From an uncultured bacterium (GTDB lineage Bacteria; Cyanobacteriota; Cyanobacteriia; Cyanobacteriales; Microcoleaceae), in assembly GCA_964619285.1 (NCBI GenBank), contig CAZUCT010000238.1, positions 1-11,280 on the forward strand: 11,280 bases of DNA, read 5' to 3'. Below are positions 1-5,347 of the stretch, in pieces (the stretch's first letter is position 1; the number at the start of each line of letters is the position of its first letter). Both the position numbers and the translations under genes were made by a program. The notes under the pieces were generated by a model. The model worked only from the letters and a program-made list of their open reading frames with translations. It ran no database searches and was not told the origin of the DNA.

Positions 1-596
1 GTATCACTTAAGTCAAGACCGCGCAAGACTATCCCGTAAAATGTTCTTTCTCCTGCCGCATAACGCCTTAGAAACTCTTCAGCAGTTATAACTCGGTCGG
101 GGTCGTTTTCAATCCGACCATCTGGCATTATAGTATTGCAAAAAAGAGCATTTTTGAGGTTAGTATTTGTCAGATCGGCATCAGTTAGGTTGACATCAGT
201 TAAGTTCGCATCAGTCAAATTAGCATCAGTTAGGTTGGCATCAGTCAAATTAGCACCAGTTAAGTTCGCGAATTTCAAAATTGCGTTAGCCAAATTGGCA
301 TTTACTAGGTTAGCATAACTCAGATTAGCTCGCGCCAAGTTGCTATCTCTGAAGTTTGCACCAGTTAAATTTGCGTTAGTTAAAATAACACTTGCCAGAT
401 GACAACCATTAAGATTGGTTCTACTAAAATTAGCATTGCTTAAGTCGCTGCGAGTCATATAAGCATAACTTAGGCAGGCATCGCTCAGATCGATGTCGCT
501 CAAGTCCGCATCGCTTAGGTAAACTTTTGTTAGATCGAATCCGACAAAGTTTCTTTCTCCTACAGCGTATCTTTGAAATAATTCTTGTCTGTTCAT
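1..596 (-). CDS. Pentapeptide-repeat protein, partial; ATG at 596, C-terminus runs off the window start
   Basis: Minus-strand frame from ATG (596..594) stays open to position 1. It translates to MNRQELFQRYAVGERNF..., then A(D/N)LxxANLTDANLTDANLTDVNLTD pentapeptide repeats, then ...CNTIMPDGRIENDPDRVITAEEFLRRYAAGERTF..., i.e. a second module begins. There is an in-frame stop 21 codons upstream of the ATG, and GAGG lies about 8 nt upstream. This frame is not in the ORF track because it lacks a stop inside the window. The listed 430..690 ORF is out of frame and lacks repeat periodicity. Confidence 0.75.
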   Translation of the reverse strand, partial: MNRQELFQRYAVGERNFVGFDLTKVYLSDADLSDIDLSDACLSYAYMTRSDLSNANFSRTNLNGCHLASVILTNANLTGANFRDSNLARANLSYANLVNANLANAILKFANLTGANLTDANLTDANLTDANLTDVNLTDADLTNTNLKNALFCNTIMPDGRIENDPDRVITAEEFLRRYAAGERTFYGIVLRGLDLSD

Positions 597-667
597 AAGT
601 ACCTCTGAAAATACAAAACAAAATAAACTGGTCGAATAAGGAGCATTCGCTCTTCTTTATCGTTTCT

Positions 668-1963
668 TTATTCCAACCAATCGGGTCCAATTAATACATA
701 TCCATCCTCAAGAATTGTCTTGTGAAAGAAAGCTCCAATCCCAGGATGCCAGTTCTTAGCACCTTTGAAATTAGAGACTACCAAGATAGCATTTTCCGTT
801 CCAAATCCCATACACTCTGCTTCCTCAAACTCAGCACCACTGAGAACAGCTTCAGTGGCATCAGCATATATGAGGTCTGCCCCAGTCAAATCTGCCCCAG
901 TCAAATCTGCACCTATCAAATTCGCGTAACTGAGGTCGGCGTAACTGAGGTCGCTACCGAGCATCTTTGCATCCATCAAATTCGCGTAACTGAGGTCGGC
1001 ACAACTTAACTTACTCAGAACCATCTTGACCCCCTTTAAATTGGCATAACTAAGATTGGCTCCTCTAAAATCCACAGCACCTAAATCGGCTTCAAACAAG
1101 TCGATTTCACTCAGGTCTGCTTCGTACAGAGATTGACCCGTAAATCTAATTCTCGCAAAATTTCTCTCGCCTGCGGCATACCGCCTCAGCAACTCTTCTG
1201 CATCTATAGAAATTTTCTCTGCGGCATTACACACAATTGCGGGATTGAGATTGGCATCAGTTAGATTAACCCCTTCCAATTCTGTCTCTTCTAGATCGAC
1301 ATAGCTGAAATCCGCACCAATTAAGGTGACATCAGCTAAACGAGAATTGTACATAGTCGCTCTTCTGAGGTTAGCATCATTAAAGTTGACTCGTTCCAAA
1401 ATCGTATTAGTGAAATTTGCTTCTCTGAGGTTAGTACCACTGAAGTTCGTATCAGCGATATGGCAATTACTAAAATCTGCTTCTCTGAGATCGGCAATGC
1501 TGAAGTTCGCTTGAGTTATAACGCAACTGCTGAAATCTGCTCCTCGTGCATCAGTCTGACTCAGGTCAGTTCCTACCAAAACAGTCTCAGCTAGGTTAGC
1601 TTTATACAGACAAGCACCACTAAGAATGGCATCGCTCAAATCGGCTCCTCTTAAATTTGCTCTCAATTCTAATTCTACTGGACTCAAGCGAGCATTTCGT
1701 AAGTTAGCACCCCTAAGATTAGCCTCAACTAAGGTAGCCATTTCTAAATTAGCCATTTCTAAGTTGGTCTGGCTTAGGTTAGCACCGTCCAACCGAATAG
1801 CTCTTAAAAAACCCTTTCTCAGATTTGCCTCGCTTAAGTCAGCACCAGTCAAGTTAGCGTATTGCAGTTTGCCACTTGTTCTGTCAGCCCTCAAAAGATC
1901 GAGTTGCTGAAAATCTCTTTCCCCACAAGCGTAGCGTAACCGTAATTCTTCTGCTGGTTTCAT
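668..1963 (-). CDS. Pentapeptide-repeat protein with two tandem PRP modules
   Basis: The ORF-track frame 668..2032 (454 aa) is dominated by A(D/N)LxxA(N/D)L pentapeptide repeats. The N-terminus of paralogues aligns at MKPAEELRLRYACGERDF (ATG at 1963), not at the upstream MRKWH (2032), so the shorter start is favoured. The longer start 2032 has GGGAG only 2 nt upstream. An internal re-start of the module is seen at EELLRRYAAGERNF. The C-terminal cap is NFKGAKNW...HKTILEDG. Confidence 0.8.
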   Translation of the reverse strand: MKPAEELRLRYACGERDFQQLDLLRADRTSGKLQYANLTGADLSEANLRKGFLRAIRLDGANLSQTNLEMANLEMATLVEANLRGANLRNARLSPVELELRANLRGADLSDAILSGACLYKANLAETVLVGTDLSQTDARGADFSSCVITQANFSIADLREADFSNCHIADTNFSGTNLREANFTNTILERVNFNDANLRRATMYNSRLADVTLIGADFSYVDLEETELEGVNLTDANLNPAIVCNAAEKISIDAEELLRRYAAGERNFARIRFTGQSLYEADLSEIDLFEADLGAVDFRGANLSYANLKGVKMVLSKLSCADLSYANLMDAKMLGSDLSYADLSYANLIGADLTGADLTGADLIYADATEAVLSGAEFEEAECMGFGTENAILVVSNFKGAKNWHPGIGAFFHKTILEDGYVLIGPDWLE

Positions 1964-2041
1964 AATTTGATAACAAGTCAATAATTTTTTGTCTCTGAAT
2001 AGTCTAGCAAAAATTCTGTGCCATTTTCTCAAAAATTGTCA

Positions 2042-2542
2042 TTACTCCCACAGGTAAGGTCCGCGTGCAAACTCTCCATCAGGAAAGATTGTTTTGCAAA
2101 TCAAAGCTCCCCTGCCGATGCAACAATTTTTAGCGCCTTTGAAGTTGGTAGCAACTAAGATTGCCCCATCAAGTTTACATTCGAGAAGCTCGGCTTCTTC
2201 TAAGTCCGCACCAGTGAGAATAGCTCCTCTAAGATCGGCGTAACTAAGGTTGGCATTTGTCAAGTCTGCACCGCTGAGATCGATTTCCTTCAAGTTAGCG
2301 TAGCTGAGAATTGCTCCCTTGAGGTTATTGCCTAGCATTTTCGCCTTACTCAAGTTGACACGAGTGAGATTTGTTCTTTCCAGCTCGCTCGGACCTGTGA
2401 GGTCGGCTTCGGATAAATCTATCTCTGTTAGGTTGGCTTCGCTCAGATGCGCATATAAGCTAATGCTAGTAAAATCCCTTTCTCCTGCGGCATATCGTCT
2501 AAGCAATTCTTTGTATTCGAGCCATTTCTTCATTTGCTTCAT
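2042..2542 (-). CDS. Pentapeptide-repeat protein
   Basis: ORF-track frame 2042..2617. The repeats are ANLTEIDLSEADL..., the N-cap is KELLRRYAAGERDF, and the C-cap is TNFKGAKN...CKTIFPDG. The start is probably ATG at 2542 (MKQMKKW...), because 2543..2617 is AT-rich promoter-like DNA (ttttatataaaa) and the paralogue N-termini align there. Confidence 0.8.
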   Translation of the reverse strand: MKQMKKWLEYKELLRRYAAGERDFTSISLYAHLSEANLTEIDLSEADLTGPSELERTNLTRVNLSKAKMLGNNLKGAILSYANLKEIDLSGADLTNANLSYADLRGAILTGADLEEAELLECKLDGAILVATNFKGAKNCCIGRGALICKTIFPDGEFARGPYLWE

Positions 2543-2626
2543 AATTGTTCTGTTATGTTTGAATTTTATATAAAACCTAAAATTTTTTTCCAGTATCGCT
2601 TTTTTAACGACGTTCAATTTCTTACT

Positions 2627-3052
2627 TCAATCTGGCATAATCGTCTCACCCTCAACGACTGCACCACTGAAATCTGCATGACTTAAATTGGCGTTGTCAA
2701 GGTTGACTTCTTCTAAAATAGCCCCCCTTAACTTAGCATGACTCAGATTGGCTCCCTTAAGAGAAATCTGATGAAATGTAGCACCGCTGAGATCTGCTCC
2801 TTCAAAGTTAACCCCATTTAATTCGGCTTCCGCAAATGCAGCCCCTCTCAAGGAGGCACCAGTGAAGTCAGCGTCACAGAGCGTAGCTTCTATGAAGTTA
2901 GCTCCCACCAAATAAGCACCCTTAAAGCACGCACCTCGTAAATCTCTTTCGAGCAAATTAATGCCGGGTAACTGAAATCCACTAAATTCCCAATTTCCTG
3001 CCTGATATCGCTTCGTAAATTCAGTAAAATCCCTAACTATTCGATCGCTCAT
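2627..3052 (-). CDS. Pentapeptide-repeat protein (141 aa)
   Basis: MSDRIVRDFTEFTKRYQAGNWEF N-cap, then repeats such as GANFIEATLCDADFTGASLRGAAFAEAELNGVNFEGADLSGATF, ending ...GETIMPD. GGAG lies about 8 nt upstream of the ATG. Confidence 0.85.
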   Translation of the reverse strand: MSDRIVRDFTEFTKRYQAGNWEFSGFQLPGINLLERDLRGACFKGAYLVGANFIEATLCDADFTGASLRGAAFAEAELNGVNFEGADLSGATFHQISLKGANLSHAKLRGAILEEVNLDNANLSHADFSGAVVEGETIMPD

Positions 3053-3099
3053 GTACTTTCTCCTTCATCCTAGTTGTTATAAAAATCCGATTTTTTGGC

Positions 3100-3573
3100 T
3101 CAACAATTATTGCTTTTAATAGTACCATCGGGCATTATCGTTTGATGAAAAATAACTCCCGTCAAGTCAGCATCGATGGCTGCGCCGCTGAAATCCGCAT
3201 AACTCAAATCGGCATTCGCGAGAATAACTTTTTCTAAAATAGCACCCCTTAACTTCGCATAACTGAGATTTGCTCCTTTAAGATAAATCCGAATCAACTT
3301 GACACCGTTTAAATTGGCAGCCTCTAAATTAGCCCCGTCGAATCGAACTTCCTCAAACACCGCTCCTCTTAGATTGGCAGAAATGAATTCTGTACCACGA
3401 AGATTAGTGCCAAAAAAGCAAGCTCCTGGAAGATGGGAGTAGTTAAACCGGGCTCGTTCGAGATTTTTATAGGGACAAACCAGCCCCGATAGCTGAAATC
3501 GAACAAACTCCCAAACACCATCCTCATAGCGCTTGCCAAATTCAGCTTTATTCTTAAATATGGCAGAACTCAT
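3100..3573 (-). CDS. Pentapeptide-repeat protein (157 aa), paralogue of 2627..3052
   Basis: MSSAIFKNKAEFGKRYEDGVWEF N-cap, the same repeat and C-cap pattern (...HQTIMPDG), AAGGAG 8 nt upstream of the ATG. Confidence 0.85.
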   Translation of the reverse strand: MSSAIFKNKAEFGKRYEDGVWEFVRFQLSGLVCPYKNLERARFNYSHLPGACFFGTNLRGTEFISANLRGAVFEEVRFDGANLEAANLNGVKLIRIYLKGANLSYAKLRGAILEKVILANADLSYADFSGAAIDADLTGVIFHQTIMPDGTIKSNNC

Positions 3574-3606
3574 CTATTTTCTCCTTAAACGGTTTTTTTC
3601 AATCTG

Positions 3607-3612
3607 ATTATA
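3607..3612 (-). promoter_or_regulatory. Candidate sigma-70-type -10 hexamer (TATAAT) for the 3100..3573 pentapeptide-repeat gene
   Basis: Minus-strand reading upstream of ATG 3573: ...tctttgcTATAATcagattgaaaaaaaccgtttaAGGAGaaaatagATG. The -10 is a perfect consensus hexamer. The best -35 candidate (TAAACA/TTAAAC at about 17 bp) is weak. Confidence 0.3.
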
Positions 3613-3632
3613 GCAAAGATTCGGTTTGATGT

Positions 3633-4436
3633 TTAACAAAAGTAGCTAATGAAACCTGAAGTATTCTGAAACAATATTATTCTACGTTCTGGTAGTTCAA
3701 TAGCTTCAATAATCTCTCCGTCCACTGTTTCTTTTAATTGATGAGTTTCTGGATTTATGATATAGCCTTGTCCTCCAGAAATTATGATGAGGTCTATTCG
3801 ATTGGGATGTTGGTAAACACCACAAAATTCAGACTTGCCTGGTTCAAAACAACCGATCCACTCTTCACCCAAATCTGAGAAAATTTCAACTACCAATCCT
3901 TCTTGATTTGTTTTTCTATCGGTGACGTAAAACCGTTCAGGGTAAAAATGTAGAGGAATGTCGAGTAAAATTCTAAAATTTTCCAGTACATATCTTTCTG
4001 AATTTTCATCCCACCTCAATCTGGAGCGTTTGATTTTTAGCCATTCCCACACGGCAGTTGGATTAGCAAGAGCATCAAAACCTTTTGGCATTGGCAAAAG
4101 AACATTGAGAACCCAGGCAAGTTGACGTATAGAGCCTCTTCCACTAGGAATTCCGGTCAAGATATCTTCTGCAACATCTAATTTTCCAAAAGTAAAAAGT
4201 CCTGCACTAAATACAAACAAGCTTACTTTTACACTTTTTATTGTTGGTTTGGATGCATTCTGATTCTGTAGTTGCGATAATTTTTCTTTAGACTCATTGT
4301 AAAGATTTTCCAAAATGGTATGTAAGGCAATATCAGAATTCAAAGTGGAACGGGAAACCGCTTGACCCCCTACAAATTTTATCTGCGATCGAACCATTTC
4401 CCTATAGCGTGCTGCTTGAGTAGTATCTATTATCAT
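3633..4436 (-). CDS. Hypothetical protein (267 aa), no recognisable family; probably co-transcribed with the upstream ART-like gene
   Basis: A clean 267-codon ORF lying 30 bp downstream of the 4467..5084 gene on the same strand. AAGGT lies immediately upstream of the ATG. No motif that I recognise (no ARH, macro or Walker motif). Confidence 0.6.
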   Translation of the reverse strand: MIIDTTQAARYREMVRSQIKFVGGQAVSRSTLNSDIALHTILENLYNESKEKLSQLQNQNASKPTIKSVKVSLFVFSAGLFTFGKLDVAEDILTGIPSGRGSIRQLAWVLNVLLPMPKGFDALANPTAVWEWLKIKRSRLRWDENSERYVLENFRILLDIPLHFYPERFYVTDRKTNQEGLVVEIFSDLGEEWIGCFEPGKSEFCGVYQHPNRIDLIIISGGQGYIINPETHQLKETVDGEIIEAIELPERRIILFQNTSGFISYFC

Positions 4437-4466
4437 TTACCTTAGCTAGAAAAAATAATGAAATTA

Positions 4467-5084
4467 TCAGCGAGAAGGAATAATGAGATTCCCCGCTTCA
4501 TCTAGATCGAAGTAAGGAATATTTCTTGCAGGAATGACTTGAATGATATTTTTGTTTGGTATTTGGTTCAAAATTATGTATTCATTTTCTCCAACTAACC
4601 CACTCCAGCCCTTAGGAATGATAGCTTTTTCCCTTGGCAAACGTAGTACAAATGTTACTCCGTCCGATCCTGCGTAAGAGGAAGCAAGCCCAGGAAAACG
4701 GGTTGTAGGAATTCCTACAGCACCCAAAGGTTCTCCAGCTAGATTGGGTCCAGCCAAAAACCCAGGAACAAGTTCCGTATGCCACCTTGCAGTATAGCCT
4801 GCAATATCTGCGTCACTTAATCCTTCTGCACGCATCCGTCTTACCAAATCTTCCGAAGCTGCTATTCCTTGTTCGCGAGCAAGAGGACTTAAAATTGGTG
4901 TTGTTCCCCTGCGCTGACCCCGATAGAGAACTATCAAATCCCTCAGGTCGAGCCACCACTCAGAAACAGTACCTATCAAGCCACGTTCGAGATGATGAGA
5001 AAGTTCATCAAGGGTAGCTGGAGCGGTGCGAGTGCTTACGTCATCAACGATGGAACGAGAAATAGCCAAATCCGAAGCTGTCAT
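4467..5084 (-). CDS. Putative mono-ADP-ribosyltransferase, R-S-E (C3/iota/VIP2-like) clade
   Basis: Motif order and spacing match the ART fold: beta1 LIVLYRGQRRG (aromatic-Arg, cf. C3 ...IMLFRGDD..., iota ...VYRWCG...), a Ser-rich beta2 GLASSYAGS (degenerate STS), then VLRLPREKAIIPKGWSGLVGENEYIILNQ (cf. iota ILRLQVPKGSTGAYLSAIGGFASEKEILLD and C3 ...AGQLEMLLP), giving an E-x-E catalytic dyad followed by a hydrophobic strand. ATG at 5084. The frame stays open for 30 more codons upstream with no start codon. Confidence 0.55.
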   Translation of the reverse strand: MTASDLAISRSIVDDVSTRTAPATLDELSHHLERGLIGTVSEWWLDLRDLIVLYRGQRRGTTPILSPLAREQGIAASEDLVRRMRAEGLSDADIAGYTARWHTELVPGFLAGPNLAGEPLGAVGIPTTRFPGLASSYAGSDGVTFVLRLPREKAIIPKGWSGLVGENEYIILNQIPNKNIIQVIPARNIPYFDLDEAGNLIIPSR

Positions 5085-5177
5085 TCCCCTAACTGCTATC
5101 CAGTCTAAACCAAATCCACCTGCATAAGTAAATAAAGGCAGATAAGCTATACTTGACGCGGCGAGGAATTGCGCTTT

Positions 5178-5206
5178 TCATGACTCACACTCATGACTCA
5201 CACTCA
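5178..5206. repeat. 13-bp tandem direct repeat tcatgactcacac x2.2, each copy carrying the palindrome TGACTCA
   Basis: tcatgactcacac at 5178-5190, an identical copy at 5191-5203, then tca. It lies about 95-120 bp upstream of the ART-like start and just downstream of the MVP stop. A third related motif, TGACTGAG, is at 5241-5248. Confidence 0.6.
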
Positions 5207-5347
5207 AAAACATCTTTTTTTCTTTGAGTTAAGAGTATGTTGACTGAGAAATCAAAAAACGCATTTTCTGCCCGTGCCGAGTATAACCTTTTTTATCGCG
5301 CTCCGCGATCGCTACAAACGACTATCGCTAAAGCGATTACTACAAAC

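Follow-up and report, generated by a model that had tools for sequence, protein, structure and literature searches.

A predicted ADP-ribosyltransferase toxin domain and its putative immunity partner beside a cyanobacterial MVP homolog

The 205-aa ORF and its neighbours

The window analysed here, that is, the whole stretch of 11,280 nucleotides to which the positions below refer, carries on its minus strand a homolog of MVP, a 205-aa ORF separated from it by 263 nt and, 30 nt further downstream, a 267-aa gene. The features of this region that bear on the function of the ORF are:

5348..8071 (-): MVP homolog (Pfam Vault 1.5e-67, MVP_shoulder 5e-50), an upstream neighbour that is not part of the system
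5085..5150 (-): pre-toxin linker remnant IAYLPLFTYAGGFGLDWIAVRG, in frame and with no start codon; 5' truncation edge
4467..5084 (-): 205-aa ORF, the toxin module, with a helical lead-in (residues 1-49) and a predicted ADP-ribosyltransferase (ART) fold core (residues ~50-190)
4920..4925 (-): codons of Y54-R55, where beta1 ends (model strand 50-57); R55 is proposed as the Arg that binds NAD in the R-S-E triad
4701..4715 (-): codons of G124-I125-P126-T127-T128, equivalent to the S-T-S motif, on strand beta2 and followed by a helix
4581..4589 (-): codons of E166-N167-E168, the E-x-E dyad, where the ARTT-type loop ends and beta5 begins
3633..4436 (-): partner gene, 267 aa, encoding a putative cognate immunity protein
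3984-4310 (-): conserved and intact immunity-type domain of the partner (residues ~43-151)

The 205-aa ORF belongs to the minus strand, the plus-strand reading being riddled with stops; it starts with an ATG, is intact and keeps all the invariant residues of its family. An earlier, sequence-only reading described it as unannotatable-looking, which is accurate: no Pfam family is matched (the best, DUF7587, has an E-value of 0.26, far below threshold), and NCBIfam, the PADLOC models and the PDB sequences gave zero matches. The peptides quoted in that reading are all found in the ORF, and its numbering of E166 and E168 is correct. Moreover, none of the curated ART families of Pfam (ADPrib_exo_Tox, Enterotoxin_a, Pertussis_S1, ART, DarT, Tox-ART-HYD1 and others, with the gathering threshold as the criterion) appeared even at E<=5 in any of the 37 family members scanned, where DUF7587, again below threshold, was all that came up. 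Whereas a word-indexed search found 10 relatives only, an exhaustive profile search recovered 116 cluster representatives at 50% identity, 53 of them with E<1e-30. The toxin domain is an ART family so far uncurated, with no Pfam or NCBIfam model; the family is new, while its kind, polymorphic ART toxins with immunity proteins, is well known. Conservation was read from an alignment of 49 domain copies, which are 25-55% identical to the window protein.

Predicted fold, active site and possible targets

Searches with predicted structures of the ORF returned almost exclusively ARTs, with TreX on top and with Tpt1 and Scabin also high in the ranking. The ART fold and the R-[ST]-E-x-E layout proposed from the sequence are borne out by these searches and by an Arg and an ExE that are invariant family-wide. 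The LYRG peptide, which had been taken as the aromatic-Arg of beta1, contains Y54-R55 and lies on model strand 50-57, with Y54 and R55 each conserved in 48 of the 49 copies and G56 in all of them. At the other end of the core, E166 is present in 49/49 copies and E168 in 48/49, and the model strand that follows the dyad opens at 168/169 and runs to 172. The proposal was thus right about the ORF, the peptides and the ExE, but it misplaced the serine motif, which is not GLASSYAGS: the true equivalent is GIPTT on strand beta2, where G124, I125 and P126 are kept in 46-47 of the 49 copies (46-48 with the nearby G121), position 128 is T or S in every copy and position 127 in 39, and where both structure models show a strand (124-128) followed by a helix (131-138). 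The placement of all these motifs in the models was judged by secondary structure. A fold other than ART and a loss of the triad positions were both looked for, and neither was found. The marks of the R-[ST]-E clade of ARTs that sequence and predicted structure can show are present, namely a predicted split beta-sheet ART fold, an Arg on beta1, an S-T-S-type motif on beta2 and an ExE at beta5, and the 205-aa ORF very probably encodes a toxin domain that ADP-ribosylates its target.

On the other hand, to judge from the models, the kinship of the family to known ARTs is visible at the level of the fold only. TreX and Tre1 (Rhs-/PAAR-borne T6SS ART toxins; PDB 8S2M, 6DRH), the former with the same placement of R and ExE, show no significant sequence similarity to the family, and a marginal sequence match to TreX (E 0.065) was not reproduced in two repeats with C-terminal sub-profiles. 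Further near-invariant residues of the family are S66 (48/49), R70 (45/49) and S77 (45/49). The S66/R70 motif (ILSPLAR), which lies just after beta1 and is an extra relative to TreX/Tre1, and a three-helix insertion of ~70 residues between beta1 and beta2 are both family-specific and not explained by known ARTs; with this insertion, the spacing from R to [ST] reaches 72 residues, compared with 39 in TreX. The CT-like R-S-E ARTs (cholera toxin, heat-labile enterotoxin A, pertussis S1, ArtA and CARDS) are 13-17% identical to the ORF, which differs from them in having neither A2/B-subunit partners nor a signal peptide, and no match to Pfam Enterotoxin_a or Pertussis_S1. Iota toxin Ia, VIP2 and C3 (ADPrib_exo_Tox), which had been advanced as the closest templates, belong to the same superfamily and follow the same R-S-ExE logic (QxE in C3), but the nearest relatives are instead of the TreX/LT-CT-PT type. 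The ART-like PT3 of a preprint on polymorphic-toxin discovery (10.1101/2021.10.19.465003), also considered, resembles diphtheria toxin and does not match the R-S-E domain of the ORF.

In TreX, R15 is found where beta1 ends, S54 on beta2 and E100/E102 at the start of beta5; its toxicity is abolished by either E100A or E102A, it modifies arginines of FtsZ, and the E-x-E dyad is reported as typical of arginine-modifying toxins (PMC11606950). By analogy, the 205-aa protein would be a C-terminal warhead in which beta1 ends with R55, beta2 carries T127/T128, and E166/E168 sit where the ARTT loop passes into beta5. In such a toxin, as in solved relatives such as TreX, NAD+ would occupy the cleft that the split beta-sheet forms, and the enzyme would transfer ADP-ribose to an essential target in the recipient cell, with E168 as the likely catalytic glutamate and E166 assisting the transfer. 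The earlier deduction that an E-x-E makes the enzyme arginine-specific is plausible in the light of TreX and Tre1 (PMC11606950), but it is unsafe, because R-[ST]-E Rhs toxins also modify EF-Tu, 23S rRNA, structured RNAs and one specific tRNA (PMC13617354). Protein arginine is the leading guess, a tentative one in view of this diversity of targets and of the high structural rank of Tpt1 and Scabin. A different chemistry or target for the ART fold, either as an NAD+ glycohydrolase or as an ADP-ribosyltransferase acting on DNA, rRNA or tRNA and not on protein arginine, is a possibility that we consider somewhat unlikely, since the invariant ExE is the arrangement of arginine-modifying toxins and the best structural match is itself one of them. 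In any case, the family is a candidate for target discovery; TreX-like ARTs strike FtsZ, EF-Tu, rRNA and tRNA.

Carriers, partner genes and the orphan cassette

In long relatives, of up to 1632 aa, the toxin domain is a C-terminal module. Among the 16 that were scanned, three contain RHS repeats and 11 carry PF13699 (the eCIS core, formerly DUF4157) near the N-terminus, followed by a long linker and by the toxin domain at or near the C-terminus. DUF4157 is a marker of eCIS cargo toxins, in which it is usually N-terminal and joined through a long linker to a C-terminal toxin (PMC8213781). These 11 relatives share that architecture of DUF4157 cargo toxins, or EATs, whereas the window copy is without the DUF4157 part; the ORF-type C-terminal domain is not named in the main texts of the eCIS-toxin papers, supplementary lists apart. 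In Nostoc sp. RF31YmG (L069/L070, positions 1-8029), the toxin domain forms the end (E 2e-57 and 7e-41) of a giant protein of ~5000 aa with Big_13/He_PIG repeats. The genes after it encode a partner homolog and then a PPIase, a C39-peptidase ABC exporter and an HlyD-type adaptor; the giant protein is a candidate for a cyanobacterial polymorphic toxin delivered by a T1SS. One other locus (L006) has an Rhs core just upstream of the toxin domain. The same C-terminal warhead is thus found on three unrelated chassis, RHS_repeat proteins, PF13699 eCIS_core cargo and giant Big_13/He_PIG proteins of the T1SS type, filamentous cyanobacteria included, which is the defining pattern of polymorphic toxins and the reason for assigning the family to them. 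Most of these carriers are of the eCIS-core/DUF4157 type, unlike the T6SS of TreX and Tre1. The inter-bacterial toxins of filamentous cyanobacteria are poorly charted, and the toxin family described here comes with a matching immunity family.

Two details of individual relatives can be added. The Rhs core, linker and toxin domain of L006 (2366-5197) lie in three frames on a contig of 2x coverage, and these splits probably reflect sequencing errors that shift the frame of a single Rhs-ART gene. In three other relatives (P0007, P0017 and P0018) the toxin domain is followed by a Pro-rich linker of ~100 aa and a LysM domain, so that the warhead does not occupy the extreme C-terminus; the LysM domain suggests peptidoglycan anchoring.

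The gene immediately downstream of the ORF was missed by the sequence-only reading. Residues 43-151 of its product match the downstream ORF of L006 (E 2e-19), and in L001, L002/L003 and L005 an ORF of 159-164 aa begins 5-10 nt after the toxin gene, the copies of L001 and L002 being 49% identical. With the further matches of a partner HMM in L004, L068 and L069/70, a homologous partner is found in every toxin locus with downstream sequence, directly after the toxin domain, as in polymorphic toxin loci. A profile of partners unites all their forms (hhalign 96.6%), which come in sizes of ~150 aa and ~330-345 aa, and occasionally the partner homologs are solitary, without a toxin (L071-L073), as expected of orphan immunity genes. 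Searches of the partner family in Pfam, PADLOC and PDB sequences gave zero matches; to the extent of the Pfam and PDB searches, it differs from TriX and Tri1. The 267-aa protein is a putative cognate immunity protein of the 205-aa toxin, which it would bind and block, possibly by occluding the active site as in TreX-TriX and Tre1-Tri1. In L005, a 139-aa ORF (2507-2926) that overlaps the toxin start bears a weak likeness to the partner family (HMM E 4e-4); it is a candidate for an additional immunity-like gene, degenerate and placed before the toxin.

The window pair is cut at both ends. At the 5' side, the linker remnant IAYLPLFTYAGGFGLDWIAVRG, which is homologous to the N-terminus of P0002 and to the linker of full-length toxins, is preceded in translation by an in-frame stop at 5178-5180, and no carrier exists within the 11-kb window that could act as a delivery module. 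A close relative of the pair (L068; toxin 87% and partner 75% identical) shows nucleotide similarity that opens exactly at the codons of the remnant, with nothing shared upstream of them. The in-frame stop, the start-less remnant and the lack of a carrier define the window copy as an orphan cassette. At the 3' side, the second, C-terminal domain of the partner (residues ~152-267), which is uncharacterised and without a Pfam match, is ~75 aa short: the alignment to its closest relative, P0125 (342 aa), reaches the last residue of the partner, and P0125 runs 75 aa further. This tail was sought beyond the stop codon and across the window and is absent, which indicates that the partner was cut by a rearrangement, as opposed to a nonsense mutation, and leaves a cassette of about 3636-5150. 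Toxin and partner are both under purifying selection and are not decaying (dN/dS against L068 of 0.156 and 0.291, respectively); as L068 has the same truncation, selection went on after it.

Orphan Rhs-CT and CdiA-CT cassettes generally consist of a linker remnant, a warhead and an immunity gene, without a delivery domain, and the classical ones lie directly downstream of the main rhs or cdi locus. The window cassette likewise has a start-less 5' linker remnant, an intact warhead with its immunity-type gene and no delivery domain, but no main rhs/cdi locus is visible on the 11-kb contig. ORF 4467-5084(-) and ORF 3633-4436(-) are probably an orphan toxin-immunity cassette of a polymorphic-toxin system, with an ART warhead, brought beside MVP by rearrangement.

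Carrier-less pairs of toxin and partner amid housekeeping genes occur in several genomes (L001, L005 and L068, besides the window), the gap between the two genes is tight (5-30 nt in these and in L002), and both genes are under purifying selection. These three observations would also suit a toxin-antitoxin or abortive-infection module that works inside the cell, like DarTG or ParST, and where a standalone ART would be restrained by its partner and freed by phage or stress. Such a module is nonetheless unlikely, for neither the toxin, the partner nor a full-length relative matches a PADLOC defence family, most members of the family are fused to secretion or delivery carriers, and the order of the genes, toxin first and partner second, is that of polymorphic toxin loci. 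Moreover, the start-less carrier-linker remnant present in both the window and L068 copies indicates derivation from a secreted toxin.

The truncation at both ends, with a start-less linker behind an in-frame stop and with the last 75 aa of the partner found nowhere in the window, could alternatively mark a dead relic, that is, a broken fragment of a toxin locus whose expression or activity is lost; a promoter and terminator scan around the pair also gave no signal above shuffled expectation. A relic is quite improbable, however, given an intact ORF with its ATG and every invariant residue in place, the dN/dS values with respect to a relative of the same truncation, and the intact immunity-type domain of the partner (residues 43-151). 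The orphan cassette has lost its carrier and the C-terminal 75 aa of its partner, and both genes have stayed under selection. Its most likely present role would be protective, through the immunity gene, with the toxin either held in reserve as a warhead that can recombine into a carrier gene or expressed alone at a low level.

The MVP neighbour and the surrounding genes

The eukaryotic vault contains vPARP (PARP4), which has the ART superfamily in common with the ORF, and the ORF likewise adjoins an MVP homolog. It had been suggested on this ground that the ORF is a shell-modifying enzyme or a sequestered toxin tied to MVP. Among 185,579 species genomes scanned, 61 bacterial MVP loci were found; filamentous cyanobacteria account for most of them, and the others come from Anaerolineae, Thiomargarita/Parabeggiatoa and one Actinomycetota MAG. 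Relatives of the toxin or of the partner occur in 0/61 of them, as searched by tblastn and by HMM on six-frame translations over up to 8 kb of flank per side where the contig allows. Reciprocally, the toxin family's other loci all lack MVP nearby wherever the flank is long enough to tell, L068 (47 nt upstream) being uninformative. In the two closest genomes, MVP is 92% and 82% identical and the DNA matches window 5342-11227 in the same order, with nucleotide identities of 91% and 81%, respectively, but in blastn and tblastn comparisons the synteny goes precisely as far as the stop codon of MVP (5348), and none of the genes of window 1-5341 is present downstream of MVP in either genome. By these comparisons, the adjacency of the ORF and MVP is a lineage-specific accident of a variable region; being accidental, it lends no support to the shell-modifying and sequestered-toxin ideas, and the MVP hypothesis is essentially refuted at the level of gene neighbourhoods. 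The toxin gene belongs instead with its conserved downstream partner.

An ART that would ADP-ribosylate the MVP shell as vPARP/PARP4 does, or a toxin stored in a bacterial vault-like particle, is accordingly close to untenable in the face of these data, to which should be added that the active site of the ORF is of the R-S-E type (R, [ST] and ExE), not the H-Y-E triad of PARPs, and that the ORF comes with a conserved partner of its own and with carriers of the kind seen in secreted toxins. It is also very improbable that the pair has been kept beside MVP because the toxin was co-opted to act on, or be packaged in, a vault-like particle, as a prokaryotic counterpart of vPARP, or, less exotically, that the carrier-less pair has become an intracellular NAD+-dependent abortive-infection module. 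As there is no bacterial "vPARP" beside MVP here, the locus is silent on the function of the bacterial vault protein; its interest is moderate for the toxin and secretion field and low for vault biology. Gene neighbourhoods are not analysed in the literature on bacterial MVP (10.1101/872010).

With regard to the MVP homologs themselves, full-length copies 60-92% identical to that of the window (L007-L067) are present in filamentous cyanobacteria, Anaerolineae/Thermoflexales, Thiomargarita/Parabeggiatoa and an Actinomycetota MAG, and this distribution implies a horizontal spread among large or filamentous bacteria. Directly upstream of MVP, window 8153-10672 (-) encodes a Ser/Thr kinase fused to a WD40 propeller, with sub-threshold Pfam matches to TEP1 beta-propellers. 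It was considered as a conserved, TEP1-like vault partner and rejected, as it adjoins MVP in just the two closest genomes (L048 and L007) out of the 61 loci.

On the other side of the pair, window 668-3573 (-) contains four tandem genes for pentapeptide-repeat proteins of 454, 191, 141 and 157 aa, none of which L048 or L007 has after its MVP gene. A number of long ORFs on the antisense strand of this interval are repeat artefacts. The 157- and 141-aa proteins have a similar N-terminal lead-in, and so do the 454- and 191-aa proteins between them.
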